A stretch of 64,000 nucleotides of DNA. It comes from Candidatus Poribacteria bacterium (lineage in GTDB: Bacteria; Poribacteria; WGA-4E; GCA-2687025). Of the stretch, positions 6,598 to 56,243 are shown one piece after another. The notes under the pieces are model-generated. The model was not told the DNA's origin and made no database searches. It saw only the letters and a program-made list of their open reading frames with translations. The position numbers and the translations under genes were made by a program. Within the stretch, counting starts at the first letter, position 1; each line of letters begins with the position of its first letter. Location: contig OY762492.1 in assembly GCA_963665845.2 (NCBI GenBank), positions 2,016,001 through 2,080,000 on the forward strand, read 5' to 3'.

Positions 6598-7704
6598 TTA
6601 TTCTTCAGAGGCGTTCTCTTGCGGCGCCTCCGCCTCCGCCTCTTTGATGTCGCCCCACTGCTCATGCTTCTTGCCCGAAAGATCGATGGAGAGAAAACGG
6701 CTCTTGCCCGCCAAAACCCATGTCGGAGAATCGCCGTCGGGCTTGATCAGCTTCTCCTTTCGCGCCGCGACATGCGCCAGGTAAACGCCAATCGGCTTTG
6801 GATTCTTCGGATCAATAGACCCTCCGAAGTAGACGATCCATTTCGAATCGGGCGACCATTCTACATGGTTGACATAGCTCCCGTCCTCCATAAAACGCTC
6901 CGCGCCGGACCCGTCCGAGTTCATCATGTACAATACTAGGTCGCCTGGACCGTCGCGCAAGCTTCCAAACATGATCGTTCGTCCGTCCCGGGACCAAGAA
7001 GGATAAATATCCGTTCTTGGATCATCGGTGAGGTTGACGATATTTGACCCGTCGCTGTTCATGGCATAGATATCGTATTTGACTTTTGCTTCGAGATCCA
7101 GCCTCGGTTCTTCCAAAGCGTCGAACGCGATTTTTTGACCGTCCGGCGACCATGACATGAAACCTGATCCAGGCAGCCGTTCCGGAAAATCGGTCAATTG
7201 AACATGTTTCTTAGTGTGAACATTCACCTTGTAAAGATTCTTTCTAGGGACAGCGTTCTGATTATACCATGTGTTGATAATCGTAACCCATTTCCCGTCG
7301 GGCGACCAAGAAGGGTGTGTGAAAAACCCTTCTTCTCCTTTAGGAAGCCATTCCAGCAGATTCTGGACGTCGCCGGTCCTCAAATCCAGCAGATAGGGTA
7401 TGTAGTTCCATTCGTCTTCGTCGAACACGACCACGACAGCGCGCTTTCCGTCCGGCGACCAGTAGGCGCTGCCTGAAAATCTTGCCTTTCCGTCCCCCAT
7501 CCAGAGTCGGTCGTTCCCGCCGTCCCAATCCATGAGGCGAATCTCAAACCCTTCAGGCGTAAGGTAGGCGATGGTCGGCTTGTCCAGCTTCGTAACATCC
7601 TCTTTCGGTTTCGGCAGGGGCAGGACAGCATGCGCCGACTGCAGACTTGCGCAGAGCAGCAGCGAGGCGGTTGTCAAACAGGCGGCGAATCGAATCTTCA
7701 GCAT
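6598..7704 (-). CDS. Secreted PD40/TolB-like beta-propeller with C-terminal W-x-x-I-K motif
   Basis: Signal peptide ending AHA, repeated WSPDG, ends SIDLSGKKHEQWGDIK plus acidic tail; start chosen by RBS spacing. Confidence 0.88.
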   Translation of the reverse strand: MLKIRFAACLTTASLLLCASLQSAHAVLPLPKPKEDVTKLDKPTIAYLTPEGFEIRLMDWDGGNDRLWMGDGKARFSGSAYWSPDGKRAVVVVFDEDEWNYIPYLLDLRTGDVQNLLEWLPKGEEGFFTHPSWSPDGKWVTIINTWYNQNAVPRKNLYKVNVHTKKHVQLTDFPERLPGSGFMSWSPDGQKIAFDALEEPRLDLEAKVKYDIYAMNSDGSNIVNLTDDPRTDIYPSWSRDGRTIMFGSLRDGPGDLVLYMMNSDGSGAERFMEDGSYVNHVEWSPDSKWIVYFGGSIDPKNPKPIGVYLAHVAARKEKLIKPDGDSPTWVLAGKSRFLSIDLSGKKHEQWGDIKEAEAEAPQENASEE

Positions 7705-7723
7705 GTCCATTCCTTCCCAATGC

Positions 7724-7752
7724 ATTGTAACTGGTCGCTGAATGCGCGTCAA
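7724..7752 (-). promoter_or_regulatory. Putative sigma70 promoter of PD40 gene
   Basis: TTGACG-17bp-TACAAT. Confidence 0.7.
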
Positions 7753-7767
7753 TATAGGCGCGAAGCG

Positions 7768-8031
7768 GACAGTCTCTATACGATGTTTTTGATTTTAGAG
7801 GGTTCCGTTTTGGAATGCGGACGCGGTCTGGGAAAACTCTGGATTCCCGCTTGCGCGGGAATGCATGTCCTCGCGGAAGCGGGGAACGAATAGCCCAATC
7901 ACAGCGGTTGGGGCGCGGTTTCTGGACTCCCCCCTTGAAAAAGGGGGCTGGGGGGGTTTTAGTTCCGGGCGCGGAATCGCGATTAGCAAAACTCAAACGG
8001 ATTTTCGTCGTCGTCGCCTATAGAGACTGCC
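7768..8031. mobile_element. MITE family B copy 1
   Basis: Ends GACAGTCTCTATACG...CGCCTATAGAGACTGCC; homologous (inverted) to 24986-25204; no TSD seen. Confidence 0.8.
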
Positions 8032-8046
8032 CGCATAATAAAATTC

Positions 8047-8075
8047 TTGCGGCGCGCGGGCGGAACCGCTAACAT
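8047..8075 (+). promoter_or_regulatory. Putative sigma70 promoter of J-domain gene operon
   Basis: TTGCGG-17bp-TAACAT with AT-rich upstream tract. Confidence 0.5.
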
Positions 8076-8110
8076 ACTGCATGTCTCAATAGACGCGGCA
8101 TAGATATTTT

Positions 8111-9388
8111 ATGAAAGATTACTATCGCATTTTACAGGCGCACCGAGAGGCGGATCAGGAAACGATCAAAGCCGCCTACCGGTCCTTGACGCGGCGGGTT
8201 CACCCTGACAAGAACCCGAACAACCGCGAATGGGCGGAAGAGCGCATGCGCGAAATCAACGAGGCGTACCATGTGTTGAGCGACGGCGCCAAACGCGCCG
8301 CCTTCGACAGAGAGTATCCCGCCTCATCCCCGAAGAGCGGCTCCGCGTCCAACGAAAAGCTGCTGTTGACGCTGGAACAGAACCGCGCCTTGCGCGATCG
8401 GGTTCAGAAGCTGACGGCGCATCTTGAACGTCAAAGCAAGGAGACGAGCGAACTTCAACAGCAGCTGAAAGAATCGGTACAACGCCGCGAGCGTCTCGAG
8501 AAGGAGCTGGCGGTGGAACGGGAGCGGAATAAGCTGCTTCGGCGCGGCTCTACATCTTCCGCCAAGAAGAAGAAAAACACGCGGATCGGGAAGACGAAGC
8601 AGACAGCGGAAGAGAGTATGGAGACGCGGGTCATGCAGCTGCCCGGCAGCTCCGCGACGATGGTTTTCGTCCGCATACCCGCTTCCATATTTGAAATGGG
8701 CAGCGCGGTCGGAAATCCAGACGAACGCCCTGTTCATCAAGCGGCGCTGGACCAGTTTTGGATCGGCGCCGAACCTGTAACCTGCAGTCAGTTTTCCGCC
8801 TTCGTCAAGACGAACCCGTCATGGAGCAAACGCTCCCTGACTCCCGATCGGCATCCGGACTATCTCAAGCCGTTCAACGGAGACAGCCCCCCGTTCGGAA
8901 AAGAGCGGCATCCTGTGACGCATGTTACATGGACGGCGGCGGCGGCGTTTGCGAAATGGGCTGGTTTTGAATTGCCGACGGAGGCGCAGTGGGAAGGCGC
9001 GGCGCGCGCCGGTCAAGACGGAGAATACGGCGGCGGCAGGTCGTTCATTTCCCCCAACGACGCCAATTTTGCGGGCAAACGGGGCGGAGTCGTCCCGACG
9101 CGCAGCTACCCGCCGAACGCATACGGCGTCTATGAAATGCTCGGCAATGTGTGGGAATGGTGCGCCGATGTCTACGACGCGGCGTTTTACCGCTCCCCAG
9201 AGGCGCTGGAGCCGAACCCGATGCGCGGCGGCGCGGGGGGCGAATCGACGCGCCGCGTTATTCGGGGCGGGTCTTGGCAGAGCCTCTCGTCCGACCTGCG
9301 GGCGTCGGCGCGGGGGCATATGAAAGCGGGAACGGCGTCCATGTTTTGCGGTTTTCGATGCGCGTTTCGCAGTAGCCCATCGTTGTGA
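8111..9388 (+). CDS. J-domain (DnaJ) / coiled-coil / FGE-sulfatase (SUMF1-like) fusion protein
   Basis: DYYRIL..HPD J-domain; LPTEAQWE, PNAYGVYEMLGNVWEW, RGGSW and GFRC. Confidence 0.9.
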   Translation: MKDYYRILQAHREADQETIKAAYRSLTRRVHPDKNPNNREWAEERMREINEAYHVLSDGAKRAAFDREYPASSPKSGSASNEKLLLTLEQNRALRDRVQKLTAHLERQSKETSELQQQLKESVQRRERLEKELAVERERNKLLRRGSTSSAKKKKNTRIGKTKQTAEESMETRVMQLPGSSATMVFVRIPASIFEMGSAVGNPDERPVHQAALDQFWIGAEPVTCSQFSAFVKTNPSWSKRSLTPDRHPDYLKPFNGDSPPFGKERHPVTHVTWTAAAAFAKWAGFELPTEAQWEGAARAGQDGEYGGGRSFISPNDANFAGKRGGVVPTRSYPPNAYGVYEMLGNVWEWCADVYDAAFYRSPEALEPNPMRGGAGGESTRRVIRGGSWQSLSSDLRASARGHMKAGTASMFCGFRCAFRSSPSL

Positions 9389-9400
9389 AGGAGATGCGAG

Positions 9401-10375
9401 TTGAGTCGACCTAAGGTGTTCATAACGCGACCGCTGCCGCCCGTTGCGGACCCGCTCATTCATCGTCTGCGGGAGACATGCGAGGTTGAGATTTGGCATT
9501 CGATGGAGGAACCCGCGCCGACAGCGGAGAAGATACGCGCCCTGGACGGCTTGGCGACCTACGGGCATGAACCAATCACCGACGCGATGATGGCGGAAGC
9601 GCCCAACTTAAAGGTGATCTCCAATATCGGCGTCGGGCATGACCATATCGACTCGGAGGCGGCGCGGCGGAGGGGCGTCGCTGTCGGCAACACCCCGGGC
9701 GTTTTGAGCGGCGCGACCGCCGATATGACCTTCGCGCTGCTGCTGGCGGGGGCGCGTCTGCTGGGTCCGTCTAACCGATATGTCCGCGCGCGTCAGTGGC
9801 GCTCTTACGACCCGAACCTGTTTTGGGGCAGCGAGGTTCATCATTCAACGATCGGCATTGTCGGCATGGGGCGCATCGGTTATGAGGTGGCGAAGCGCGC
9901 CCGCGGCTTCGACATGAACATATTATATTACAAGCGGAATCGGCGCGCGGACTGGGAGCGGGAGCTGGGAATGTCTTACGCGCCGCTGAATGAGTTGCTG
10001 GAGGCGTCCGATTTTGTAACGCTGCATGCGCCGATGTCGCCTGAAACGAAAGAGATGATCGGAGCGGCGGAGCTGAAGCGGATGAAGCGGACGGCCGTTT
10101 TGGTGAACGCGGCGCGCGGCGGAATCGTCGACCATGCGGCGCTGTATGAAGCGTTGACATCGGGCGAGATTGCGGCGGCGGCGCTGGATGTGACGGAGCC
10201 AGAACCGCTTCCGCTCGATAGCCCGTTGATCGATCTGGACAATTGTTTCATCGCGCCGCATCTGGGCAGCGCGACGGTGGAAACGCGGTTGAAAATGATA
10301 CAAATGGCGTTGGATAATTTAATGGCGGGGCTGAACGGAAAACCGCTGCCTTACTCGGTTTTGGAACCTACATGA
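9401..10375 (+). CDS. D-2-hydroxyacid dehydrogenase (glyoxylate reductase/D-glycerate dehydrogenase family)
   Basis: GMGRIG, VNAARG, ALDV.EPEP and PHLGSAT. Confidence 0.93.
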   Translation: MSRPKVFITRPLPPVADPLIHRLRETCEVEIWHSMEEPAPTAEKIRALDGLATYGHEPITDAMMAEAPNLKVISNIGVGHDHIDSEAARRRGVAVGNTPGVLSGATADMTFALLLAGARLLGPSNRYVRARQWRSYDPNLFWGSEVHHSTIGIVGMGRIGYEVAKRARGFDMNILYYKRNRRADWERELGMSYAPLNELLEASDFVTLHAPMSPETKEMIGAAELKRMKRTAVLVNAARGGIVDHAALYEALTSGEIAAAALDVTEPEPLPLDSPLIDLDNCFIAPHLGSATVETRLKMIQMALDNLMAGLNGKPLPYSVLEPT

Positions 10376-11079
10376 TGAGCTCATACGAGAAAATAAGCGT
10401 CGTCATCCCGGTCTATAACGAAAAAGCGACTCTGCTCGAAATCATCGAAAAGGTGCGCTCGGCGGATGTGGCGGGTCTTGAAAAAGAGATTGTGCTGGTG
10501 GACGACTATTCAACGGACGGCTCGCGCAATATGCTGCAGGAAATCGAAGCGTCCGAGCCGCCCGACCTGCGCTTCGGCTACCATGAGGCGAATCAAGGCA
10601 AGGGCGCCGCGCTGCGCACCGGCTTTGAGATCGCGTCCGGCGATCTGATCATCATTCAGGACGCCGATCTGGAGTACAACCCTGACGAGTATCCGAAGCT
10701 GCTGGAGCCGCTGCTGTCGGACGAGGCGGATGTGGTGTACGGGTCGCGTTTTCTGAAGGGCGCGCAGAGCGAGGCGTGGCACACCTTCGGCAACCGCTTT
10801 TTGACGGCGGTTTCAAACCTGTTCACCGGGCTGAAGTTGACCGACATGGAGACATGCTACAAGCTGATGCCGGCGGAGGTGGTGAAGAATATCCCGCTGC
10901 GCTCCGACCGGTTCGGCTTTGAGCCGGAGATCACGGCAAAGCTGGCGCGCCGGCGCATGCGAATCGTGGAGCGTCCGATCACATACAGCCGGCGCGGATA
11001 CGACGAGGGAAAGAAGATCAACTGGAAAGACGGAGCCGCCGCGATCTACCACATCATACGGTACCGCATCGCCGACTAA
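10372..11079 (+). CDS. GT2 glycosyltransferase (polyprenol-phosphate glycosyltransferase-like)
   Basis: VVIPVYNE, VDDYSTDGS, NQGKGAA, QDADLEY and TDMETCYK. Confidence 0.92.
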   Translation: MMSSYEKISVVIPVYNEKATLLEIIEKVRSADVAGLEKEIVLVDDYSTDGSRNMLQEIEASEPPDLRFGYHEANQGKGAALRTGFEIASGDLIIIQDADLEYNPDEYPKLLEPLLSDEADVVYGSRFLKGAQSEAWHTFGNRFLTAVSNLFTGLKLTDMETCYKLMPAEVVKNIPLRSDRFGFEPEITAKLARRRMRIVERPITYSRRGYDEGKKINWKDGAAAIYHIIRYRIAD

Positions 11080-11089
11080 GAGACGGTCG

Positions 11090-11279
11090 CTGACCTTATG
11101 CATAAAGTAGGGACATTTGAATTGACGATCGCTCTATTCATGGGAAAAAGGCTTCGCCAACCAGACCGTCCCCCGCTTACGCGAGGGCATGCATTCCCGC
11201 GTAAGCGGGAATCTAGAGGCGGCGAAGAAGACGTCCGCGTTCGCCCGCCAGCATGTCCCTACTTAAGACGTGAGGTCAG
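11090..11279. mobile_element. MITE family A, full length with 22-nt insert
   Basis: TIRs CTGACCTTATGCATAAAGTAGGGACAT / ATGTCCCTACTTAAGACGTGAGGTCAG; internal ATTCCC-N8-GGGAAT. Confidence 0.85.
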
Positions 11280-11348
11280 ACAGTTTCTATGCGCGGCTAA
11301 AACCCCCCTAGCCCCCCTTTTCAAGGGGGGAATCGGACGAGGCGGGGG

Positions 11349-12374
11349 TTACGCTTCCACCTCCCATGTGTCGCCGGATTCAAACAGCTCTTGGAGCGTT
11401 TGACCGCCGCCTTTTTCCGTTTCAGCGTTCACCTGATCAGCCATCATGTCTTCGTAGCATGGGCGTTCGATGTTTCGGATGACGCCGACGGGGCGCGGGA
11501 AATCTTTGCGCTCTTGGAATGTGGCAAGGATGCCGGCAAGCAGTCCCGATTCGTCATGTTCGTCATGGACGAGCGCGTCGTCGGCGCCGTAGGCGCCCGC
11601 TTTCAGATCGATGACATGCGGCTGCAGTCCGTCCAGCCGTATCGCCTTGTCCCGTTCGCGCCCGAAGATCATCGGCTTTCCATGCTCAAGGTAAAGCATG
11701 GCGTCCATCTTCGAATTTTTGTCAACAAATTCTGCGAAGGCTCCCCCGTTGAACACGTGGCAGTCCTGGTAGATTTCAAAAAAGACGGCTCCATGATGCT
11801 CCGCCGCGCGTCGAATCATGGCTCCCATGTGTTTCAGATCGCGGTCGATGGAGCGGATGATCATGGGCGCGTTGGCGGCAAGCGCAATGCGCAGCGGGTT
11901 GAACGGCGTGTCGATGGAGCCGACCATCGATTTGTGTACCACTTTTTGTCCTGTCGGCGATGTGGGCGAGTACTGCCCTTTCGTCAAGCCGTACACCTGG
12001 TTGTTGAAAAGCAGCAGCGTGACATCCAGATTTCGCCTGAAGAGATGCAGGAGGTGGTTGCCGCCGATGCTGAGACTGTCGCCGTCCCCTGTGACGATCC
12101 AGATGTCCAGATCGGGCCGCGTCGCTTTCAGCCCGGTGGCGATGGCGGGCGCCCGTCCGTGTATCGTGTGAAAGCCGTAGGTACCCATGTAGTATGGAAA
12201 ACGGCTTGAGCATCCGATGCCGGAGATGAAGGCAACCTCATGCGGCGGGCGCCCAAGAGCAGGGAGCGTCCGCTTGATGGAGGCGAGGATGGCGTAATCC
12301 CCGCATCCGGGGCACCACCGCACCGTCTGGTCAGATTCGAAATCTTCTGGCGTGAGCGTTTGTGCAGCTTTCAT
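11349..12374 (-). CDS. korB: 2-oxoacid:ferredoxin oxidoreductase beta subunit
   Basis: WCPGCGD, SGIGCS, HGRA, GDGD and YGLTKGQYSPT; ATG 12374 with GGAG. Confidence 0.93.
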   Translation of the reverse strand: MKAAQTLTPEDFESDQTVRWCPGCGDYAILASIKRTLPALGRPPHEVAFISGIGCSSRFPYYMGTYGFHTIHGRAPAIATGLKATRPDLDIWIVTGDGDSLSIGGNHLLHLFRRNLDVTLLLFNNQVYGLTKGQYSPTSPTGQKVVHKSMVGSIDTPFNPLRIALAANAPMIIRSIDRDLKHMGAMIRRAAEHHGAVFFEIYQDCHVFNGGAFAEFVDKNSKMDAMLYLEHGKPMIFGRERDKAIRLDGLQPHVIDLKAGAYGADDALVHDEHDESGLLAGILATFQERKDFPRPVGVIRNIERPCYEDMMADQVNAETEKGGGQTLQELFESGDTWEVEA

Positions 12375-14262: not shown

Positions 14263-14286
14263 ATCAAGCGCTTTCTACTGTTTGAG

Positions 14287-14829: not shown

Positions 14830-14866
14830 CTCATAACTCCTATAACGCTCATGGAGCGGTTTCAGT

Positions 14867-34874: not shown

Positions 34875-35028
34875 CCCCATCGCGTCATTCCCGCGTAAGC
34901 GGGAATCTTAAGGCGCCGCAGCCGCCGCGCCCGTCCTTTAAACCCCCCATCGCGTCATTCCCGCGCAAGCGGGAATCTTAAGGCGCCGCAGCCGCCGCGC
35001 CCGTCCTTGCGGTAAACGCGCGGGAATC
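34875..35028. repeat. Tandem ~70-bp duplication of palindrome-containing module
   Basis: CCCCATCGCGTCATTCCCGCG..CCCGTCCTT present twice, followed by a half palindrome. Confidence 0.85.
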
Positions 35029-35125: not shown

Positions 35126-35293
35126 CTGACCTCATGCTGAAAGTCGGGACATTTGAACGAATGATCGCTCTATTCATGGGAAAAAAGCGTCATCAACCAG
35201 GTCGTCATTCCCGCGTAAGCGGGAATCTAGAGGCGCCGCAGAAGACGTCCGCGTTCGCATGCCGACATGTCCCAACTTTAGGAATGAGGTCAG
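35126..35293. mobile_element. MITE family A, full length (168 bp)
   Basis: Both TIRs present; flanks ATGAAAG / ATGAAAA. Confidence 0.85.
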
Positions 35294-35307
35294 ATGAAAA
35301 GTGTTGA

Positions 35308-36047
35308 CGCGTTTCGGACCGCCGGCTAACGCTGACGGCGCCGCGCTGGTCGCCCAACGGGCAGTGGCTTGTGTGCCGCGGCTCCTCCGGCGACGGCAGG
35401 GTCAAGCCGCTGGACATCTACAAGTTGAACGTTTCGTCTGCCAAAGTCGTCAACTTGACAAGATCGCCGAATGAAAACGACGATTGGCCCTCATTTTCGC
35501 CGGACGGCAAGAAGATTCTGTTCTCCTCCGCTCGCGGCGATCAGGACAACAGAGTTTCGGACATCTATATCATGGACGCCGACGGACGAAACGAAGTGAA
35601 CCTGACAAACCATCCAGCCGGCGATTCCACACCGGAATGGTCTCCGGACGGCAAGAGAATCGCGTTCAAATCCTCTCCTAGGATTCGGTCCAACGAGGAG
35701 AAGGGGCATGACATCTATCTCATGAACGCGGACGGGTCGGAGGTGGAGCGGCTCACAACCGACGCGCGCTGGAAGACCGTGCGGAGCTGGTCTCCGGACA
35801 GCAAATGGATTTTGACCGGCATTCAGCTTCCTTGGGACGACAATCGGTATCAGATTCACCGCGTCCATGTGGAGACGAAACAGATTGTCAAGATCACGCG
35901 CGCCGATGAGTTCGTCTTCAGCGAGTTGGGTTTTGGCGGGCAAGGGCCGCTTCCTCTCCATTGATCCGGCGGGTAAAAAAAGCGGAATGGGGAGCGTTGA
36001 AAGCGGCGGACCGTAGCGATAATCAAACTCCGCAAGACGGCGACTAA
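35308..36047 (+). pseudogene. 5'-truncated, doubly frameshifted PD40 paralog
   Basis: WSPNG/FSPDG repeats without signal peptide; WVLAGKGRFLSIDPAGK and AEWGALK lie in shifted frames. Confidence 0.8.
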
Positions 36048-36146
36048 TGCGCAGAAAGGCATAGCGGGCGCTTGACATCTCCCCCCGTATGAGCGACGAT
36101 ACAGCGACTTTTCCAAAACGGAGTATGCCGCAAGGAGCATGGCATG
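35936..36146 (+). repeat. ~210-bp direct repeat copy 1 (gene 3' end, intergenic region with TTGACA, RBS)
   Basis: Highly similar to 37146-37358. Confidence 0.9.
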
Positions 36147-37259
36147 GCCTTCTCCGCCTTCACAAAATCCTTGGCAGCGTTCGCGGCTGTCGTCTTCTCG
36201 CTTCTGCTGTGCGCGTCCGCGCCGGCAAGAGACTTTGTCCCAAAGGAAGATGTGACGAAACTGGAAAAGCCGACCATCTGCGTAAAGCGGGGAAACACGC
36301 TTCGACTCATCGACTGGGACGGCCAAAACGAGAGGGTCTGGATGACCGGGGAATTCAACCTTCCGGCAAGATTCAGCAGGGATGGCAAGCGCGCCTCTTT
36401 CATCGCCAGTACGGAGGATTTCGGTTGGTACACGCTGTTCATCCTGGAGCTGGAAACCGGGCGTCTGATCAACATGACGGAGCGCCTTAACAAAAAAGGA
36501 TATGAGCATATCTACATCCCATTCGCTGTGTGGTTTCCAGACGGGAGGCGTCTTGCATGCAGCGTCAACGACAGAAACAACCCGATCCCTGAGTATTCCG
36601 ACATCTATGCGTTGGATATCCGCGACGCGACGCTGGAGCAGCTCACCAACACGCCGCTTCAGGATGATATTTGGGCGTCCGTCTCTAGAGACGGCAAGAA
36701 GATCGTCTACAATTCCAATATCAGCGAAAAGGAGAGATCTGCGCTCGGTCTCATTGAAGATTACTGGCCTCACCATCTTTATACGATGAACGCCGACGGC
36801 TCCAAAGTCGTGAATCTGACGTACAGCCCCGCAACCGAGAGATTGCCTGAATGGTCGCCGGACGGCAAGAAGATCGCGTTCTTTGCGTTCGACCGCAAGG
36901 AGCAGGAAGGAGAGATACGCGCAACCGACCTTTTTATGATGGACCCAGACGGTTCCAATGTTGAGCGTCTCACATCCCGCAAAGACGGAAGGCGGGCAAG
37001 AGTCAGCGACTGGTCGGCGGACAGCAAGTGGATTCTGTTCAATATGACTCAAGACGACAACTCGCCGTACGAACTTTACCGCATTCATATAAATACGCGG
37101 GAGATCGTGCGCATTTCCATAGGCGGCTCCGCGAGGTGGGTTCATGCGGGCAAGAGCCGCTTCCTCTCCGTCAACCCTGCCGATAAAAAAAAAGCGGAAT
37201 GGGGAGCGTTGAAAGCGGCGGACCGTAGCGAAAAACCAACTCCGCAAGACGGCGACTAA
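36144..37259 (+). CDS. Secreted PD40/TolB-like beta-propeller
   Basis: Signal peptide, EDVTKLEKPTI, WSPDG repeats, C-terminal SVNPADKKKAEWGALK. Confidence 0.9.
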   Translation: MAFSAFTKSLAAFAAVVFSLLLCASAPARDFVPKEDVTKLEKPTICVKRGNTLRLIDWDGQNERVWMTGEFNLPARFSRDGKRASFIASTEDFGWYTLFILELETGRLINMTERLNKKGYEHIYIPFAVWFPDGRRLACSVNDRNNPIPEYSDIYALDIRDATLEQLTNTPLQDDIWASVSRDGKKIVYNSNISEKERSALGLIEDYWPHHLYTMNADGSKVVNLTYSPATERLPEWSPDGKKIAFFAFDRKEQEGEIRATDLFMMDPDGSNVERLTSRKDGRRARVSDWSADSKWILFNMTQDDNSPYELYRIHINTREIVRISIGGSARWVHAGKSRFLSVNPADKKKAEWGALKAADRSEKPTPQDGD

Positions 37260-37358
37260 TGCGCAGAAAGGCATAGCGGGCGCTTGACATCTCCTCCCGT
37301 ATGAGCGACGATACAGCGACTTTTCCAAAACGGAGTATGCCGCAAGGAGCATGACATG
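37146..37358 (+). repeat. ~210-bp direct repeat copy 2
   Basis: Highly similar to 35936-36146; TTGACA at 37284. Confidence 0.9.
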
Positions 37359-38462
37359 ACGTCTATTGCCTTCTCAAATCTTCGCGCAGTTCTTGCCGCG
37401 GCTGTCTTCGTCGCTCTCTTGAGCGCGCCGTACCTTCATGCCGACCTCAAACCGATGGAGGATGTGGCGAAACTGACAAAGCCGACCGTCTGTTATGCCG
37501 GCGAAGAAGGGCTGTACCTCGTCGACTGGGACGGACAAAACAACAGGCTCTGGATCGAAGGCGTCTTCGGTCTCGCCCCTGAATGGAGCCGAGACGGTCG
37601 GCGCGCCTCCATCATCGCCGGCCGCAGCTACTTCCATTATATCCTGGACATTCAAACAGGGCGCTTGACAAACATGACGAAGCGGCTGGACGAGAAAGGC
37701 GTCCGCGCCGATACGTATTACTACACGGGCGCATGGTGGTTTCCAGACGGAAAACGACTCGCGTGCCGAGGATACGATGTGCATGACGGCTCAAGCCTTG
37801 CCGATGTCTATATTCTAGACATCAATAAGCTGACGTTCGACAACGTGAAACAAACGCCGACAGCGCAGGAAGCATGGATTTCGGTGTCTCCCGACGGGGA
37901 GAAGATTGCGTTCCATGCAAGTTACAACGCCCAAGACGACAAGTTCGACACAGAATCTCAGCAGGATCTGTTTGTCATGGACGCGGACGGCTCCAATGTT
38001 GTGAACTTAACAAACAGCCCCGCATACGAGAGAAACCCTGAATGGTCGCCGGACGGAAAGAAGATCGCCTTTGAAGCGGCGAAACGCCCCGAGCAGCTCA
38101 AGACCGGAATCAGAGGAGTGGACGTCTATGTGATGGACGCGGACGGCTCCAACGTTGAGCGGCTGACGACCCATGAAATTGGGAAATGGAAATCGCCAGG
38201 GACCTGGTCGCCAGACAGCAAGTGGATTCTGTTCGACATGCAGGTAGACCGCGGGCCGTACGACATCTACCGCGTTCATGTGGATACGAAAGAGGTTGTT
38301 CAAATCACACATGGGGCTGGCGGCGGTTCTCCCACATGGGTTCATGCGGGCAAGAGCCGCTTCCTCTCTGTTGATCCAGCGGGTAAAAAAAAAGCGCAGT
38401 GGGGAGCGGTGAAAAAAGCGGACAGCAGCCCGAATAGTCCAACTTCGCAAGACGGCGAATGA
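37356..38462 (+). CDS. Secreted PD40/TolB-like beta-propeller
   Basis: Paralog; C-terminal SVDPAGKKKAQWGAVK. Confidence 0.9.
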   Translation: MTSIAFSNLRAVLAAAVFVALLSAPYLHADLKPMEDVAKLTKPTVCYAGEEGLYLVDWDGQNNRLWIEGVFGLAPEWSRDGRRASIIAGRSYFHYILDIQTGRLTNMTKRLDEKGVRADTYYYTGAWWFPDGKRLACRGYDVHDGSSLADVYILDINKLTFDNVKQTPTAQEAWISVSPDGEKIAFHASYNAQDDKFDTESQQDLFVMDADGSNVVNLTNSPAYERNPEWSPDGKKIAFEAAKRPEQLKTGIRGVDVYVMDADGSNVERLTTHEIGKWKSPGTWSPDSKWILFDMQVDRGPYDIYRVHVDTKEVVQITHGAGGGSPTWVHAGKSRFLSVDPAGKKKAQWGAVKKADSSPNSPTSQDGE

Positions 38463-38487: not shown

Positions 38488-39588
38488 ATGCGGCGCGTCC
38501 GACGTTTCATTTGTCTGGGAATAACGCTGGCGGCTTTGCTTTTGATCGGCTCGCCGCCGGCTCTTCCCGACGGTCCGCCTCTTCCGAAGATACTCGAAGA
38601 CGTGACGAAACTTGAGAAGCCGACCATCTCATACGAAAGACGCGCGGCAGACGATCCGTACATAGAAGAGATTCGGCTGGTGGATCTGGACGGGCAAAAC
38701 GACCGGCTCTGGATGCGCGGAACTAGAGAGGTCGGGTTGTCTGGCGCGCCGAAATGGTCGCTGGACGGAAAACGGACGGCGGTTGTCGCGATCGATTCCA
38801 TTAAAGGAGTCTATGCGCCGTACATCCTTGATTTAGAAAAGGGGAAAGAAACGAGCCTCTATGACCTGCTTCCGCGCGATTTGGATTTTATCCATCTCAA
38901 TTGGTCGCCGGACGGCAGATGGCTTGCGATGGCAGGCACGGCGCGCATTGGACGCGGCTCCGACATCTACAAACTGCGCGTTGACACCGGCAGGTTGGTC
39001 AATTTGACTCGTAAGCGGTCCGCTTCCAACTGGCGCCCCAACTGGTCGCCGGACGGTAAAAAGATCGCGTTTGACGCTACCACGGAGTTGTACCGGGACA
39101 TCTACACGATCGACGCGGCGGACGGCAAAAACCGCGTCAAGCTGACGAATATGCCGCTTTCCTCAGAGCCGGCGGTTTGGTCGCCGGACGGGAAATGGAT
39201 CGCGTTTCAGTCTTATCTGCCGGAGGCTCCCTTCAGCGAAACCCCTGATTCTGCGGAGATGTATGTGATGCGTCCTGACGGCTCCAACGTTCAGCGACTC
39301 ACCTTCAACGACACTGGAGATTTTCCGAAGTGTTGGTCGCCGGACAGCAAATGGCTTGTTTACAGTCACTACTCTCGTCAAGCGGACGGCGGGCGTCTTG
39401 GCGGGCTGTACCGCATGCACATTGAGACGAAGGAGATTCGTCTCATCAAGCAAGGCGTTGCAGCAATCAATGCAACATGGGTCTTGGCGGGCAAGAGCCG
39501 CTTCCTCTCCGTTGACCCTGCCGGTAAAAAAAAGGCGGAATGGGGAGCGTTGAAAGCGGCGGAGGCGCCCGATGCGCCCGATGAATGA
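38488..39588 (+). CDS. Secreted PD40/TolB-like beta-propeller
   Basis: Paralog; AAGGAGG RBS; C-terminal SVDPAGKKKAEWGALK. Confidence 0.9.
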   Translation: MRRVRRFICLGITLAALLLIGSPPALPDGPPLPKILEDVTKLEKPTISYERRAADDPYIEEIRLVDLDGQNDRLWMRGTREVGLSGAPKWSLDGKRTAVVAIDSIKGVYAPYILDLEKGKETSLYDLLPRDLDFIHLNWSPDGRWLAMAGTARIGRGSDIYKLRVDTGRLVNLTRKRSASNWRPNWSPDGKKIAFDATTELYRDIYTIDAADGKNRVKLTNMPLSSEPAVWSPDGKWIAFQSYLPEAPFSETPDSAEMYVMRPDGSNVQRLTFNDTGDFPKCWSPDSKWLVYSHYSRQADGGRLGGLYRMHIETKEIRLIKQGVAAINATWVLAGKSRFLSVDPAGKKKAEWGALKAAEAPDAPDE

Positions 39589-42061: not shown

Positions 42062-43066
42062 TTACATACGCCGCGCAATTTCAACAGACCACTGATAAGG
42101 CTTTTCAACAGCGGGCAGATTCGGCGCATAAACGGGGCTGACCGACCCGCTGATTTTCCACGCGCCAAGACGCGCCCATGCCCCCGCGGTCGCCCCGCTC
42201 TGTATCCAGAGCCGTTCGTCAACCGCAATGTCGCCGCCGTTGACCGGCAGATAATCCGCCTTCCAACGCTCGGCGCGGCGCATATATCCCGCGGCGGCGC
42301 CGATTCGGTTTTGGTACACAAGAACCGCCCCGCCTGAACCTTGAGCGGCATGCGGGGACGGAAACCGCGCGTCCGCAGAGAGCGTCAGCGCAAACTCTGA
42401 AGAGAGCCGCAATCGATGCTGAACCCCCGCCGCCGTTTCGCCCCGCACGCGGTAGGACGCGCCGAGACTGGACAGGTCGGAGCCGCTTAAATTCCGCGCA
42501 TGGACGCCGAAACGCCACCGCTCATTCGGCTCATACGCCAGCTGAATGTCCCACGCGGACGCATGGTCGACGCGCTTCCGGTCACGCTTTGCGCGAATCC
42601 ATTTTCCGCCGGCGGAGGCGGTTAGTTTGCGAAAACGCTTCTGAAACGAGACGCCCGTAAGCCAGTCCGAGTCGGCAAAGGCATGCAGCGATGAGCCGTC
42701 CGAGTCGATGCGCTCAAATCCGCCGGAGGAGCGAAACGCGGTTTCGAAACGCAAAGCCGCCGTCTTAGCAAGCGGAAACGGGACCTGAAATCGACGGACA
42801 GCATATCCTTCTCGTATGAGATTCCCCGTCGTTTCGCTTCCGCCGGACGGGAGCGCGCGCCGCAGTTCAACGCGCGTTTCCGGCGCTCTGAGGGTCATGA
42901 GGCTCCATTCCAGCTCCGATACCTGCGCCGCGAGGACGCCCCCGGATCCCTGATGAACAGGCCGATTCAGCTCGTATAGAAACGGCAGCTCCGCGGGCTT
43001 CCCCCAAAGAGAGAGCGCCGCGAACGTCATAAACGCGCTAACCCAAGAGAAGCGCCACATGGGCAA
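42062..43066 (-). CDS. Secreted beta-rich protein, weakly PorV/PorQ(FadL)-like
   Basis: Signal-like N-terminus; GKWI..AWDIQLAY..FGVHARNL strand pattern. Confidence 0.5.
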   Translation of the reverse strand: MPMWRFSWVSAFMTFAALSLWGKPAELPFLYELNRPVHQGSGGVLAAQVSELEWSLMTLRAPETRVELRRALPSGGSETTGNLIREGYAVRRFQVPFPLAKTAALRFETAFRSSGGFERIDSDGSSLHAFADSDWLTGVSFQKRFRKLTASAGGKWIRAKRDRKRVDHASAWDIQLAYEPNERWRFGVHARNLSGSDLSSLGASYRVRGETAAGVQHRLRLSSEFALTLSADARFPSPHAAQGSGGAVLVYQNRIGAAAGYMRRAERWKADYLPVNGGDIAVDERLWIQSGATAGAWARLGAWKISGSVSPVYAPNLPAVEKPYQWSVEIARRM

Positions 43067-50675: not shown

Positions 50676-50706
50676 GCCGCCCTCCGACGATTTAAACACG
50701 TCTCTG

Positions 50707-50735
50707 ACGATAAGGCATGTTGCGCTGGGCGTCAA
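50707..50735 (-). promoter_or_regulatory. Putative sigma70 promoter of WD40 gene
   Basis: TTGACG-17bp-TATCGT. Confidence 0.6.
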
Positions 50736-50745
50736 GCCCGCCGGT

Positions 50746-50772
50746 CTGACCCCGCCCCTTGAGTTCGGACAT
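50746..50772. mobile_element. MITE family A solo TIR remnant
   Basis: CTGACCCCGCCCCTTGAGTTCGGACAT. Confidence 0.55.
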
Positions 50773-50980
50773 TTCTGAATGCGAATCCAGAGGCATCGCA
50801 GCCGCCGCGCGGCTAAAACCCCCCTAACCCCCTTTCAAGGAGGGAATCAGAGGCGCGCCTCTTTATCAAGGGGGAATGATGCGCGGTTGCGTTTCCGCTT
50901 CATTCGGCGTATGCTGTTTATGAAACGAAAGCCGGCGGCGCGCCGCGGGCAAATTGAACATCGCGATTTGGAGAGAATCA

Positions 50981-51775
50981 ATGAAACGCGGAATGATGGT
51001 ATGGGCGGCGCTGGCGGCGTTTGCGTTTGCGTTTGCGACAAGCGCGGCGGGGCAGGTGGTTCTGGACGGGCTTGTGGCTTACTGGCCGCTGGATCCCGCG
51101 AATTTTGACGGCAAAGATGCGCAGGATGTGATCGGAGAGAACCACGGCGTCGTGAACGGCGACGTCAAAGAGACCGCCGGCAGGGTCGGCGGAGCCGGCG
51201 AATTTGACGGCGAAAGCCCCATCGAGATCGAAGGTACCGACGCGCTCAACTTTGCCGGCAAAGACGCATTCAGCGTGTCCGCATGGGTGAACGCCGCGAG
51301 CGACAACCCTGTCGTCGGCGTGGTGGCGAACTGCTGCGGAACGATTGTCGCCCAAAGAGACGCTAGCGGTTGGGCTTTGCGTTACGACGGACGCAACGCC
51401 GGTCAGGAGTATGAGTTGATCATCAACGCCGGCGGATGGCAGGGCGACGGCGGCTTCGGCGTTGAACTGGAGGTGAGCGTCTGGCGCCATTTGACAGGGA
51501 CGCTGGGCGACGGCGTCATGAAGCTGTATCTGGACGGCGAATTTCAAAAGGAGATGAATGTTGCCGCCCCCATCGGAAGCAACAGCCCTGAAACGGAGAT
51601 CGGAAACGCCGCGGCGGACGGCGGCTTCGTCGGCAAAATCGATGAGGTGATGATCTACAACCGCGCGTTGGACGACGATGAGGTGAGGTTGAACTTCAAC
51701 GCGGAAGGGTTGAGCGTCGACGCGGCGGGCAAGGCGGCGGCGCGCTGGGCGGAGCTGAAAACTGCCCTGCATTAA
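50981..51775 (+). CDS. Secreted LamG-like jellyroll protein
   Basis: Signal peptide, GLVAYWPLD, FSVSAWV, WRHL, LYLDG and GKIDEVMIYNRAL; ends SVDAAGKAAARWAELK. Confidence 0.9.
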   Translation: MKRGMMVWAALAAFAFAFATSAAGQVVLDGLVAYWPLDPANFDGKDAQDVIGENHGVVNGDVKETAGRVGGAGEFDGESPIEIEGTDALNFAGKDAFSVSAWVNAASDNPVVGVVANCCGTIVAQRDASGWALRYDGRNAGQEYELIINAGGWQGDGGFGVELEVSVWRHLTGTLGDGVMKLYLDGEFQKEMNVAAPIGSNSPETEIGNAAADGGFVGKIDEVMIYNRALDDDEVRLNFNAEGLSVDAAGKAAARWAELKTALH

Positions 51776-51800
51776 ACATGTCAGGACGGGATGAAAGAAG

Positions 51801-53132
51801 ATGCCGATTATCCGACCAAGGCTGGTGGTGGAGCTTTACGAAGGCTGGGCGTTCAGCGGGCGCAAGGCGGTCGTCGTTGAAAACGCGGTGAGCCGCGCCG
51901 ACATGGGAATGCACGGCAGAATCTTTTCAGCGCGCGTCTTCGAGGGTCCAGGGTTTGAAACCTCTCCAAATCAAAAAGCGGTCTTCTACGACCGAGACCG
52001 ATACCGCGGCAACCGCTTGGCGTTAGCCCCAGGCTTCTATCCGAACATCCAGGACCTGGCGCGCCGCTTCGGTTCCCCCGAATCGATACGTTTTGAGGCG
52101 GAAAGCGAATCGGCAGGTCCCCAATGGGGAAGCATACCGATTGTGATCGAGACCTATAACTGGCCCAACTTCGGCGGACGGCGCCAAACCGTTGTGCGCG
52201 ACATACCCAACACGCGCGAAATCGGGCAGGAAAACACGATCTCCTCCATCAAGCTCTACAAGGGTCCCAATTTCCCGCGCAAAGGCTGCCGCGTCACCTT
52301 TTATTCAGAGCCGAACTTCGCCGGTCTGCGCATGCCGATTGAGATGCGTTCAACAGAACCTTACAAAGAGTTTCCGAGCCTAGACGATCTGCCGCATTCC
52401 ATCGGCAACGACATCTCCTCCATCGACATCGCCTGCTGGTCGGACCGCTCCGAGTTCACCGTCGAGACGTTCAAGGACGAGTTTCAGAACGGACTTGGGC
52501 GGGGCTGGCGCTGGCGAGACCCCGAAGGCGGCGACTGGAACATGCGCCACGGCGTCCTCACCTTTTCAGCAAAAAAAGGGCAGGACCTGACCTATGAAGC
52601 GGAACACAACGCCCCGCGCGTCTATCAATACACCCGCGGCGACTTTGCCATCGAGACGATGCTGCCGCTGTCGGCGGGCGGGCTGGAGCATGGCGGGCTG
52701 TATATCCGCAAGGATGAAAACCGATGCGTACGCCTAGAAAAAACCTGCCGCCCCCATGACTTCCACGGCGATGTCATGTTTCAACGGCATGACTGGCGCT
52801 TCACCCGCCTTCTAGGGCGCTCCGCCATGCAGGACGCAAAGCAAACCTTTCTCCGCTTAGAGCGCAAGGGCGATGTCATAACCGCCCATGCCAGCCCCGA
52901 CGGAGAATTATGGGAGCAGTGCGGCGAAACGGTCATGGGAATGTCGGACCCTGTCGAATACGGGATGATGGCGTCCGCGCCTGAAGAGACGCCGGACACG
53001 ACGATTCAGTTCGCTTATTTAAAATCGGATCGACGCAAACGGGATGTTCGAGACTTTCAAAGATACATGGCGCGGAGGGACCGGCGGCGGAATTCGCCGA
53101 GGGTTCGCCGAACGGTGCGGACTCTGCGTTAA
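51801..53132 (+). CDS. Beta/gamma-crystallin-like repeats plus ConA-like (DUF1349/beta-xylosidase C-terminal-like) domain
   Basis: Y..PNF.G and NDISSI crystallin motifs; NAPRVY..GDFAIET, GGLYI and LRLERKGD..SPDG..W. Confidence 0.7.
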   Translation: MPIIRPRLVVELYEGWAFSGRKAVVVENAVSRADMGMHGRIFSARVFEGPGFETSPNQKAVFYDRDRYRGNRLALAPGFYPNIQDLARRFGSPESIRFEAESESAGPQWGSIPIVIETYNWPNFGGRRQTVVRDIPNTREIGQENTISSIKLYKGPNFPRKGCRVTFYSEPNFAGLRMPIEMRSTEPYKEFPSLDDLPHSIGNDISSIDIACWSDRSEFTVETFKDEFQNGLGRGWRWRDPEGGDWNMRHGVLTFSAKKGQDLTYEAEHNAPRVYQYTRGDFAIETMLPLSAGGLEHGGLYIRKDENRCVRLEKTCRPHDFHGDVMFQRHDWRFTRLLGRSAMQDAKQTFLRLERKGDVITAHASPDGELWEQCGETVMGMSDPVEYGMMASAPEETPDTTIQFAYLKSDRRKRDVRDFQRYMARRDRRRNSPRVRRTVRTLR

Positions 53133-54042
53133 AACGGCGCTGCTCATCTGCGCTTTATGGACGGCGCCCGATGCGGCAGCCGACACCATCGCCTTCGCCT
53201 CCGACCGTTCAGGCGGATGGGCGTTATACGGCATCAACCTGAACGGCGGACCGGCGCGGCTCATCATCGACACGGACGGCTCCGACTTTCACCCGTCCTG
53301 GTCGCCGGACGGAACGCGGCTCGCCTTTTTTTCTTCTATAGGGGCGACAGCGAACCTTTACACAATCCGCGCGGACGGCTCCGATCTCCAACAGATCACC
53401 TTCGGAGAATGGATCGACAAGGCGCCTGCATGGTCGCCGGACGGAGAATGGATCGCCTTCAGCTCCGACCGCGCCGGCGGGTTCGACCTGTATCTCGTAC
53501 GCCCGGACGGGACGGATACGCGCCGCCTGACGAATCATCCAGAAGACGACAAGCTGCCGGCATGGTCGCCGGACGGAACGCGGCTCGCCTTCGCAACCGT
53601 ACGGGGCGGCAACACAGACATTCGCCTTTTCAATATAGAGACCCGCGCGGAAACCCGCTTGACCGACCATGCGCGGTACGACTGCTACCCGTCCTGGTCG
53701 CCGGACGGGGAGAGCCTCGCGTTCGCTTCAGACCGAGACGGCGATTTCGACATCTACCGCCTCAACCTAAAGACAAAAGAGACCGCCTTGTTAACAAAGA
53801 ACGATCTGGACGACGCCTTTCCGTCCTGGTCGCCGGACGGCTCCAAGATCGTTTATCAGACCGAGACGGAGGAGGGAAACTGGGCGGTGGCGCGGATGAA
53901 CGCCGACGGCTCGAATGTTGAGCGTTTGACCCGTTCAGACGGCTGGGACACGAAGCCTGTCTGGCGCCCGGGCGTTTTGTCAGCGGATTTACAGCGGCAT
54001 AAGCCGTTTTACTGGGCGCTGTTGAAGCGCCGCGCCGATTAA
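53044..54042 (+). CDS. Secreted PD40/TolB-like beta-propeller (start uncertain)
   Basis: IAFASDR, five P[SA]WSPDG repeats; divergent tail SADLQRHKPFYWALLK. Confidence 0.85.
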   Translation: MFETFKDTWRGGTGGGIRRGFAERCGLCVKTALLICALWTAPDAAADTIAFASDRSGGWALYGINLNGGPARLIIDTDGSDFHPSWSPDGTRLAFFSSIGATANLYTIRADGSDLQQITFGEWIDKAPAWSPDGEWIAFSSDRAGGFDLYLVRPDGTDTRRLTNHPEDDKLPAWSPDGTRLAFATVRGGNTDIRLFNIETRAETRLTDHARYDCYPSWSPDGESLAFASDRDGDFDIYRLNLKTKETALLTKNDLDDAFPSWSPDGSKIVYQTETEEGNWAVARMNADGSNVERLTRSDGWDTKPVWRPGVLSADLQRHKPFYWALLKRRAD

Positions 54043-54096
54043 TATGATAACGTTAGGCGTTGCAAACATTTCAACAATGCAGGAGTAAAGCAGAAA

Positions 54097-54774
54097 ATGA
54101 AACGACTAATATGCGTTGCCGCTCTCGGCGCGGCTGCTGTCCTGGCGCAGGCGGCGGATGTGGCGCTCGAGGCGGAACTGGGCGATCTGGAGGAGCCGAT
54201 GGTCATCGCCGTTCCAGCCGACGCGGCGGCAGAAGGCGGACACGAACCGGATGAACCGTCGCGCGGCAAATTCGTCTGGGTAGCCGGACCGCCGGCCTCC
54301 GGCGGAAACGACCATGTCGGCTGGGTCTCGTTTGATTTCAGCGTCGCGGCGGCGGGCGAATACGCTGTATGGGGGCGCATCGTCGCCTGGGACGGCAACA
54401 GCGACTCCTTCTGGGTGAAAATCGAAGGCGCCGACCCTGACGAGCAGCCCCAAGAATCGCAGAACACCCACTTCCGATGGAGTACCTCGAAAAACAACAA
54501 CTGGCATTGGGACCGCGTCAACCAGTGGCTGGACGGCGGAACGTTCGCTCGAGTCTGGGAACTGGCGGCGGGCGATCACACGCTGATCATTTACTCGCGC
54601 GAATCGGCGGCGATGCTGGACACCGTCTTCATCACCGACAACCTGTCCGAAAACGAAGCGGATGTGCCGCTGCGAACGCCGACCGACGAAGATGTCGCAA
54701 TTCAGACGGGTCAACCGACCAATGTGGAGCCGAAAGGCAAGCTCGCGGCGGTCTGGGCGGAACTAAAACGGTAA
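54097..54774 (+). CDS. Secreted CBM-like (galactose-binding-fold) protein, paralog 1
   Basis: Signal peptide, LEAE, GEYAVWGR, NSDSFW and HTL..RE...LD; ends VEPKGKLAAVWAELKR. Confidence 0.75.
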   Translation: MKRLICVAALGAAAVLAQAADVALEAELGDLEEPMVIAVPADAAAEGGHEPDEPSRGKFVWVAGPPASGGNDHVGWVSFDFSVAAAGEYAVWGRIVAWDGNSDSFWVKIEGADPDEQPQESQNTHFRWSTSKNNNWHWDRVNQWLDGGTFARVWELAAGDHTLIIYSRESAAMLDTVFITDNLSENEADVPLRTPTDEDVAIQTGQPTNVEPKGKLAAVWAELKR

Positions 54775-54813
54775 ACTTGAGCGCGTTGAGAACCTCGCAT
54801 GAAAGGAATAAAG

Positions 54814-55515
54814 ATGAGAATGCTGCATTATGGAGCTTTGGCGGCGGCCGCGCTATGCCTCTGCCTCGCGGCGGCGCAAGCGGACGAGATCGCGCTAGAA
54901 GCGGAGCTGTCGCTTGAAATTGAAGAACCGATGGTCATCGCCGTCCCAGACGACATTGAGGAGCATGGCGGACCGAAACCGAATGAACCGTCCAACGGAA
55001 AGTTTATCTGGCGGCCAGGTCCGCCCGCGTCGGGCGGCGGCGACCATGAAGGTTCCGCGCGGTTCACATTTCCCATCAAAGATGCCGGAACCTATCGGAT
55101 CTTCGGGCATGTGGTCGCTTGGGACGGCAACAGCGACTCGTTCTGGTTCGCCGTTTATCAGGACGGAAACGGCGAGGCAGACCAGGACATGGAGCCGAAC
55201 GCGACGCAGGACACGAATTACCGTTGGAGCGTCTCGAAAGGCAACAACTGGCACTGGGACCGCGTCAACCACTGGCTGGACGGCGGCACCTTTGAGCGCA
55301 TGTGGGAGCTGGAGGAAGGATTGGTCACCATCGCCGTATGGAACCGCGAATCGGCGACGATGCTGGACGCGCTCTACATCACAGACGATGAGCAAGCCGT
55401 CACAGGCGTTCTCCCGACCGACGCGGACAGGGAACGGCAGCGGAGCAACTTCAACCTGAGCGTCGATCCGAGCGGGAAGTTGACGTCCACATGGGCGACT
55501 CTCAAAACGCGCTGA
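54814..55515 (+). CDS. Secreted CBM-like protein, paralog 2
   Basis: Same motifs; ends SVDPSGKLTSTWATLKTR. Confidence 0.75.
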   Translation: MRMLHYGALAAAALCLCLAAAQADEIALEAELSLEIEEPMVIAVPDDIEEHGGPKPNEPSNGKFIWRPGPPASGGGDHEGSARFTFPIKDAGTYRIFGHVVAWDGNSDSFWFAVYQDGNGEADQDMEPNATQDTNYRWSVSKGNNWHWDRVNHWLDGGTFERMWELEEGLVTIAVWNRESATMLDALYITDDEQAVTGVLPTDADRERQRSNFNLSVDPSGKLTSTWATLKTR

Positions 55516-55541
55516 CGGGTCATAATTGGGAAGGATGAACC

Positions 55542-56243
55542 ATGCGCATGTTGTCGATCGGCGCATTCGCGGCGGCTCTTTCGTTCGCCTTCTTGTCAGC
55601 CGACGGCGCCGAGTTGGCGCTGGAGGCGGAGCTGGCGCAGACGATCGTCCGTCCAATGCAGGCGGCGGTTCCGGAAAGCGCTGTCAACAGAGGCGGACCG
55701 AAGCCTAAGAACCCGTCGAACGGAAAATTTATCTGGGCGCCGGGCGCTCCAAATCAGAACGGCGGCAACTCCGGCTATGCGCGTTTCACCGTTCCGATTG
55801 AAAACAAAGGCTCCTATAGGCTGTTCGGCCATGTGATCGCCTGGGACAACCGCAGCGACACGTTCTGGGTGACCATATGGCAGGACGGCAACCGCAAAGC
55901 CGACCAGGACCGAAACCCGCAGCGATCCAGGAACCGAGAATACCAGTGGAGGCTGCGCCCCAGAAGCCCCTCGTGGGTTTGGGACCGCGTCGATCAACGG
56001 CTCGCCGCCGGCGGCAGGATGGACCGCGTCTGGGAGCTGAAAGAGGGGTTGGCGGTCATCACGGTCTGGACGAACGAAAACGCCGCGATGCTGGACGCGC
56101 TTTACCTGACCGACGATGCGACGGCGAGGACGGGCAGACTTCCAACCAAACAAGAACGCGATCTGCAGAGCCGAAACTTCGACCTCGGCGTCGACCCGAA
56201 AGGCAAACTGGCGTCCGCATGGGGGCAAATGAAGGCGCGTTAA
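55542..56243 (+). CDS. Secreted CBM-like protein, paralog 3 (basic)
   Basis: Same scaffold, Arg/Lys-rich; ends GVDPKGKLASAWGQMKAR. Confidence 0.75.
   Translation: MRMLSIGAFAAALSFAFLSADGAELALEAELAQTIVRPMQAAVPESAVNRGGPKPKNPSNGKFIWAPGAPNQNGGNSGYARFTVPIENKGSYRLFGHVIAWDNRSDTFWVTIWQDGNRKADQDRNPQRSRNREYQWRLRPRSPSWVWDRVDQRLAAGGRMDRVWELKEGLAVITVWTNENAAMLDALYLTDDATARTGRLPTKQERDLQSRNFDLGVDPKGKLASAWGQMKAR

Follow-up and report, generated by a model that had tools for sequence, protein, structure and literature searches.

A 64,000-nt stretch of DNA from Candidatus Poribacteria bacterium (positions 2,016,001–2,080,000 of contig OY762492.1, assembly GCA_963665845.2; hereafter the window) encodes nine proteins that share a short tail at or near their C-termini. 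A preliminary description of this DNA had proposed the tail as a portable sorting or anchoring signal, and all nine open reading frames (ORFs), with their tails, were found where it had placed them (Table 1). Pfam recognizes PD40 in five of the nine and Laminin_G_3 in one. It has no match for the proteins at 54097, 54814 and 55542, a family with a CBM6/35-like sandwich fold in an AlphaFold2 model based on 119 homologues. Since the nine carriers fall into three families, the window holds about three independent cases. Among its 942 ORFs of at least 40 aa, a hidden Markov model (HMM) of the tail scores above 6 bits only in eight of the carriers and in two pseudogene fragments.

Table 1. Tail carriers and a candidate tail reader in the window (window positions; tail positions approximate)
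Feature	Position	Strand	Tail	HMM score (bits)	Remarks
PD40 propeller	6598–7725	−	6643–6693	26.0	Signal-peptide-like start; 14 more residues follow the tail
PD40 pseudogene	35308–36047	+	Divided between frames 35816–36016 and 35910–36047		5′ end missing
PD40 propeller	36144–37259	+	37164–37214	32.3	
PD40 propeller	37356–38462	+	38364–38414	36.8	
PD40 propeller	38488–39588	+	39505–39555	38.4	
Divergent PorV/PorQ-like barrel	42062–43030	−			No Pfam match; in ftsH-folP-acpS-X-gcvH-like operon
LamG protein (PF13385, Laminin_G_3)	50981–51775	+	51710–51760	31.8	
TolB-like PD40 protein	53044–54042	+	53977–54027	<3	Divergent tail; doubtful member
CBM6/35-like protein	54097–54774	+	54718–54768	32.3	
CBM6/35-like beta-sandwich	54814–55515	+	55456–55506		Tail modelled as coil + helix
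CBM6/35-like protein	55542–56243	+	56184–56234	27.0	

The tail has a 17-residue consensus, [LT]-S-V-[DNE]-P-x-G-K-x4-W-[GA]-x-[LIV]-K. The strict pattern first given for it fits five of the nine window tails; those at 6598, 36144 and 50981 are off at one or two positions, and that at 53044 deviates further. The invariant distance claimed for the motif is borne out, as a D, N or E lies nine positions before the W in 9/9 tails. The statement that the proteins end in the motif fails for the four close PD40 carriers, which continue for 10–15 mostly acidic residues beyond the final K. The tail seen in the PD40 pseudogene at 35308 is present but split over reading frames. The first frameshift of this pseudogene is probably real, since contigs of four runs, all belonging to a single study that may itself be the source of the DNA, match positions 35733–35943 with 0–1 differences; a putative second shift sits at poly-A. 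No RNA data set is listed as containing the pseudogene stretch. REP-like high-copy palindromic repeats (~34950–34990 and 35160–35295), at which contig depth is hundreds of times that of the flanks, lie immediately 5′ of the pseudogene. A Beta/gamma crystallin + DUF1349 protein without the tail (51801–53132, +) is located among the carriers.

Across the host genome, the strict pattern occurs in 70 ORFs, always within 20 aa of the stop codon (70/70), and in none of the 58,028 ORFs reversed as a control. With an iterated HMM there are 121 matches at ≥15 bits: 120 lie ≤20 aa from the stop, a single one lies 25 aa away, and reversed ORFs again yield none. Thus, the motif does not recur at internal positions, an outcome that would have spoken against a C-terminal signal. 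Our working set comprises 117 carriers (HMM ≥10 bits, ORF ≥120 aa), and the tail is found on 116 of the 3095 called genes (~4%). BLAST sorts the carriers into 20 clusters (41, 27, 19, 4, 3, 3, 3, 3, 2 and 2 members and ten singletons), which overcount the folds because the singletons include remote members of the LamG or CBM9 type. Their domains are PD40, LamG, DUF1080, CBM4/9, CBM9, CBM6-like, NPCBM, GH43_C2, M12 zincin, AhpC/TSA, DUF4960 and cohesin+PKD. Within the carrier families, nearly all members have the tail or a divergent form of it; the exceptions include one PD40 lipoprotein, a few truncated copies and two paralogues that bear the C-terminal domain (CTD) of the secretion system of type IX (T9SS). 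Acidic extensions beyond the tail helix occur in 41 PD40 carriers. The genome also contains many recent paralogues and frameshifted copies, and 44 of the 117 carriers begin within 2.5 kb of the preceding one.

The tail goes together with predicted export. By a lenient in-house heuristic, used in place of SignalP, 108 of 115 carriers start with a signal peptide, compared with 828 of 2407 background genes. Two carriers flagged by a loose lipobox regular expression were rejected as lipoproteins, the Cys lying within the hydrophobic stretch. In the one structural model made of a carrier family, that of the protein at 54814, the tail is a coil followed by a helix (residues 200–209, pLDDT 72–80) outside the sandwich, and hence is not an integral strand of the fold there. 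The helix is basic and only weakly amphipathic (mean hydrophobic moment 0.26, mean hydrophobicity −0.13, net charge ~+2.4).

Two carriers deserve separate mention. One, with a weak cohesin match and a PKD domain (contig C1:2825463–2826878, −), stands beside a second observation: dockerin-like motifs occur in 8 of 62 CTD cargoes and in none of the 117 tail carriers. Together these hint at surface assemblies. The other is an AhpC/TSA-like protein (C1:2982281 to ~2982860, −) with a signal peptide, the tail and an in-frame TGA at the U-x-x-C position, which is likely selenocysteine; a similar split ORF lies directly upstream.

The tail belongs to no tested family. None of 51 tails matches NCBIfam, and Pfam returned only three single-member matches for them, at E 0.1 or worse. 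A PDB search with the tail profile found antibody light chains at best (E 0.027), which we judge to be chance, and a query of the ESM Atlas gave no usable match. As first reported, the tail does not match the T9SS CTD: neither the nine window carriers nor the 51 tails hit the type A models (TIGR04183/PF18962), and the sets of tail and CTD proteins are without overlap; for the type B CTD no family match was found. The absence of a transmembrane (TM) helix after the motif sets the tail apart from the LPXTG/PEP-CTERM/GlyGly-CTERM type: no 19-residue window reaches a Kyte–Doolittle value of 1.6 in the last 50 aa of any of the 117 carriers. Exosortase (PF09721) was not found in the host genome; sortase and rhomboid families were not searched for. 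No description of the motif was found in the literature searched, which left out most subscription papers and the supplements; proteins of this kind may be among those in Table S9 of PMC3909097. These results uphold the proposal of a portable short signal, in that the tail is C-terminal, linked to signal peptides, carried by unrelated folds and absent from the libraries. Its function in export, processing or docking is that of a candidate, proposed from sequence.

The tail is general to Poribacteria. Its profile matches 151/151 genomes of the phylum in 22/22 genera, typically with at least dozens of matches per genome. A DNA-pattern scan of GTDB found at least 120 loci, whose titles, among the matches listed, name Poribacteria for 115 and an "uncultured bacterium" for five; the 121 distinct matches in these loci all lie ≤18 aa from the stop, 107 of them ≤5 aa. 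The taxon-named homologues of the 54814 protein are all Poribacteria except one "bacterium," which makes Ca. Poribacteria the most probable host. In the 119 rows of this family's alignment, the tail, downstream of a variable linker, has an invariant V and W and a K that is 98% conserved. The tail HMM, which is biased to the host genome, accepts 83 of 120 homologues, and nearly all of the failing ones inspected keep the Trp half of the tail by eye. A profile search of 1.84 billion representatives returned 51 matches: 46 C-terminal carriers and five unrelated repeat proteins that we rejected as chance.

The same genomes encode a T9SS-like machinery. With 53 TIGR04183 matches, or 62 CTD ORFs by a local HMM, the host genome is rich in CTD cargo. 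It also has a SprA-like protein of 2153 aa and two intact PorU-like C25 proteins of ~2000 aa (C1:1858861–1865773 and C1:1293086–1299277), one of them followed by a PorV2-like barrel; a broken PorU-like copy lies on small contig C3 (~6740–11236). A search of the PorU-like proteins for the catalytic Cys by regular expression found no match, and the GHG motif alone was seen. SprA-like genes occur in 61/61 phylum genomes, and PorV/PorP-like barrels number 13–15 in the host genome (5 of 15 tested pass NF033709) and 13–21 in each of 13/13 phylum genomes. Many of these barrels are encoded directly behind cargo with divergent CTDs, suggesting many signal–shuttle pairs in a T9SS-like system in which GldM was not found. 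Two PorV-like barrels (C1:2940669–2942849 and C1:789363–790847) carry fusions with a SPOR/FtsN-like domain and, as judged by eye, a lytic transglycosylase-like domain, and a FadL-like barrel (C1:2162401–2163618, −) weakly matches Bacteroidota BamG (E 2e-13, under the cut-off). The first Poribacteria genome paper noted CTDs but reported that structural Por genes were not found, leaving the pathway unsettled (PMC3909097).

Tail and CTD are connected in three ways. The first is a swap: the tail carrier C1:1739067–1740377 is 84% identical over 210 aa to the 1504-aa CTD cargo C1:246536–251068, and PD40 proteins that are tail-only in the host genome have homologues with both tail and CTD in other genomes (E down to 1e-26). 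The second is a fusion, in which K-x5-[GA]-x-hydrophobic-K stands six residues (once five) before the N[YF]PNP of a CTD in 83 of 101 genomes, with 0 matches to a control pattern. In 30 such loci that were fetched, the S-V-E-P-x-G half, which the pattern does not force, appears in the consensus, and among these loci are several that encode PD40 homologues of tail-only proteins. The host genome has no fusion by the strict pattern and one looser case (C1:2751708–2756099). There, a half-motif, W-[SA]-x-[IVAT]-[KR], lies 18–24 aa before the CTD in 16 of 54 CTD candidates, all 16 from a few WD40 paralogue sets; the 54 include one false candidate, C1:630172. The reported absence of the tail from WD40 proteins is true in the window, but elsewhere WD40 cargoes of the T9SS have a half or degenerate form just before the CTD. 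A model of a tail+CTD protein gave a confident CTD (pLDDT 83–96 by block) and a tail at 51–57 without regular packing; packing of the tail on the CTD in cis is therefore unsupported, and we rejected it. The third is a split by size: all 117 tail ORFs are shorter than 500 aa as against 5 of 61 CTD ORFs, counts in which paralogues are not independent.

If barrels act as shuttles for particular signals, the reader of the tail may be sought among them. In a tree of 109 barrel sequences, which covers only some barrels of each genome, some orthogroups adjoin CTD cargo, and five widespread groups have no CTD neighbor detected within flanks of ~0.9–1.5 kb. The barrel at 42062–43030 of the window belongs to one of these orphan groups; present in 39 of 41 phylum genomes, mostly as a single copy, it is one of five candidate tail readers. 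A search for its homologues gave 44 matches, of which both taxon-named ones are Poribacteria, and was of no use for a cross-phylum profile. The preliminary description had assigned the tail to a machine without a name. That remains so for the reader, none having emerged among the barrel orthogroups examined; the tail itself, in contrast, is tied to type IX secretion by the swap, the fusion and the SprA-, PorU- and PorV-like genes.

Our best reading of these data, in which we place even confidence, is that the tail serves small cargo as a short signal linked to the T9SS and recognized by a shuttle of the PorV/PorP family. It rests on the swap, the fusion, the size split and the precedent of signal-specific shuttles in Bacteroidota. 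There, CTDs of type A and of type B are each recognized by shuttles of their own, and within a CTD the signal for secretion may be separate from that for targeting (PMC12618676). In the proposed sequence of events, an N-terminal signal peptide, as judged by the heuristic, would carry the protein to the periplasm, where the tail is predicted to hang free of the folded domain as a coil and a short W/L/K helix. A dedicated PorV/PorP-family barrel would then bind the tail at the SprA-like translocon. Speculatively, the cargo might stay on the shuttle, or a PorU-like sortase might cut near L-S-V, followed by attachment or release. Small single- or two-domain cargo would use the tail alone; large cargo would rely on a folded CTD, at times preceded by a degenerate tail that would serve as a destination signal. 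A broader proposal, toward which we are somewhat more doubtful than hopeful, is that Poribacteria, along with several lineages related to the FCB group, have a pathway derived from the T9SS but lacking its motor, which exports small folded proteins by means of a linear C-terminal peptide of 10–17 residues with its own PorV-family shuttle.

Several points weigh against a T9SS signal. One carrier is an AhpC-like redoxin, and such redoxins are usually periplasmic. GldM (TIGR03517) and the PorZ propeller (PF21544) were not found in the host genome, which is 90% complete; GldK, GldL and GldN were not searched for. The SprA-like and PorU-like matches fall under the curated cut-offs (182 bits vs 200 and 320 vs 420 in the host; under cut-off in all 61 phylum genomes for SprA). 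Because both the T9SS genes and the tail occur throughout the phylum sample, their co-occurrence has no contrast group. A tail neighbor stands beside just 1 of the 109 barrel sequences, and no PorV-like gene adjoins the tail proteins in metagenome loci L205–L280. The W, invariant in the 54814 family, is kept in 5 of the 30 fusion loci and is L or F in 25. Known T9SS signals are folded domains (PMC4804311), of 70–100 residues and dependent on their integrity, in a system described as limited to the FCB superphylum (PMC11285876); a tail of 17 residues has no such domain. PMC5445135 reports a small residue as the P1 preference of PorU, which the Leu before the Ser of the tail does not fit.

The fusions themselves are ambiguous. 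A CTD alone should suffice for export, so they fit equally well with the main rival, in which the tail is a docking or retention tag. Such a tag would bind some abundant receptor or scaffold, either periplasmic or at the surface, and would not by itself bring about outer-membrane crossing; a CTD would be added for T9SS export. This account, which we consider unlikely but far from negligible, draws on the retention of most of the motif in the fusions of 83 of 101 genomes, on the redoxin carrier and on the invariant V, K and W, which imply a specific protein partner. Also in its favor, the half-motifs before the CTD in the host, all of them from the few WD40 paralogue sets, could survive cleavage. 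It leaves unexplained, however, how ~120 lectin-like tail-only proteins reach the surface, or why all of them should be periplasmic. No repeated receptor was identified, and the change of W to L or F before the CTD would follow if the CTD assumes the function of the tail. On another view, the tail would pack in trans on another protein's CTD, or tails would form a filament core displaying varied heads. The fixed six-residue register of tail to CTD and the clustering of 44 carriers are consistent with this. Yet the tail+CTD model shows no regular packing beside its confident CTD, and a related family of Ignavibacteria type, described below, resembles one conserved protein rather than a repertoire of heads; we therefore think it very improbable.

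Still less credible is direct insertion of the basic helix into the membrane, or its binding to lipopolysaccharide, without a protein reader. A predicted helix that is positively charged and contains a W would suit such an anchor. But its hydrophobic moment and hydrophobicity are low, an acidic extension follows it in the 41 PD40 carriers, and the fixed V-to-W spacing and invariant residues exceed the needs of lipid binding. That the tail has no sorting role, and either belongs to the structure of each fold or is a 3′ cassette that recombination has spread in the absence of selection, would agree with the many recent paralogues and frameshifted copies. This explanation is already largely refuted and has almost no claim left: the folds that carry the tail include propellers, several sandwiches, a zincin and a thioredoxin fold; the model places it beyond a variable linker and outside the sandwich; and it is kept in 22/22 genera at C-termini only.

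A similar tail exists beyond Poribacteria. A metagenome scan with the pattern T-W-G-x-[IV]-K-x-L-[YF]-R-stop, which itself forces the position of the stop, found 129 distinct TWGx[IV]K-type tails; 59 have a complete 5′ end, and 49 of these have a signal-peptide-like start (length 131–359 aa). Their upstream part, which the pattern leaves free, reads [TV]-[PA]-[VTA]-[ERQ]. Twenty were looked up and 18 are present in the collection, with three clusters taxon-named Eisenbacteria, Krumholzibacteria and Ignavibacteriales. The Ignavibacteriales protein, of 131 aa, ends in T-S-V-x-K-x-T-W-G-S-I-K-A-L-F-R, and 69 of 70 homologues, with identity down to 34%, keep the tail. Proteins of this Ignavibacteria type (131–143 aa, signal peptide, nearly invariant TWGSIKALFR end; L208:3626–4030, L211:4004–4396, L207:381–809) have no Pfam, NCBIfam or PDB match and, instead of being ordinary cargo, could form part of the system itself. 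The neighbors of a single carrier of this type were considered as readers and set aside as housekeeping genes. Both this tail and the Poribacterial one are laid out as [SPA]-V ... W-G-x-[IV]-K, the spacer being ~5 residues shorter here, and we infer that the two may be akin; T-S-V or T-A-V also marks the start of the CTD in FCB cargo.

If the broader proposal of a motor-less pathway is true, the tail would be the first signal of the T9SS to be something other than a folded domain, present on ~4% of host genes, and possibly a minimal T9SS address. Poribacteria combine SprA-, PorU- and PorV-like genes across the phylum sample with a second, peptide-sized tag on ~120 proteins of one genome. The tag offers a means to annotate the many secreted proteins that are called "hypothetical" in this dominant sponge symbiont; those tagged, mostly glycan-binding and propeller types, may face the host matrix. 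Because Melioribacteraceae/Ignavibacteriales include cultured members, the related tail on the conserved protein named from them provides a route to experiments. More broadly, a 17-residue tag for export or display would be a useful engineering tool.

It is useful to set the tail against known systems. Dockerin–cohesin display and PBP5-type amphipathic anchors are portable C-terminal attachment modules; the tail differs from the first by the lack of dockerin-like motifs in its carriers and from the second by its low hydrophobic moment. Like LPXTG, PEP-CTERM, GlyGly-CTERM, PGF-CTERM and MYXO-CTERM (bioRxiv 10.1101/2023.06.07.544157), it is a portable tag of ~20 residues on many unrelated exported proteins per genome. 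Unlike in these, neither a TM helix nor a basic cluster follows the motif; there is no NCBIfam match, and no exosortase was found. Type B CTDs with their PorP/SprF shuttles resemble the proposed tail as a second signal class with its own barrel shuttle, and orphan cargoes there share one; type B CTDs are folded, however, and often encoded beside the shuttle, whereas tail carriers are scattered and do not adjoin a barrel gene (PMC12618676). The type A CTD, present in the host in the FlgD_ig-like PF13860 form, differs as a 70–100 residue seven-stranded sandwich from a tail of 17 residues, one confined to cargo below 500 aa, whose reader and cleavage are candidates only. Yet both are C-terminal, both serve Sec-exported cargo of many folds and neither has a TM helix. 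The tail occupies the type A CTD slot in paralogues and in many genomes is fused directly in front of the CTD, and the same genomes encode SprA-, PorV- and PorU-like genes.

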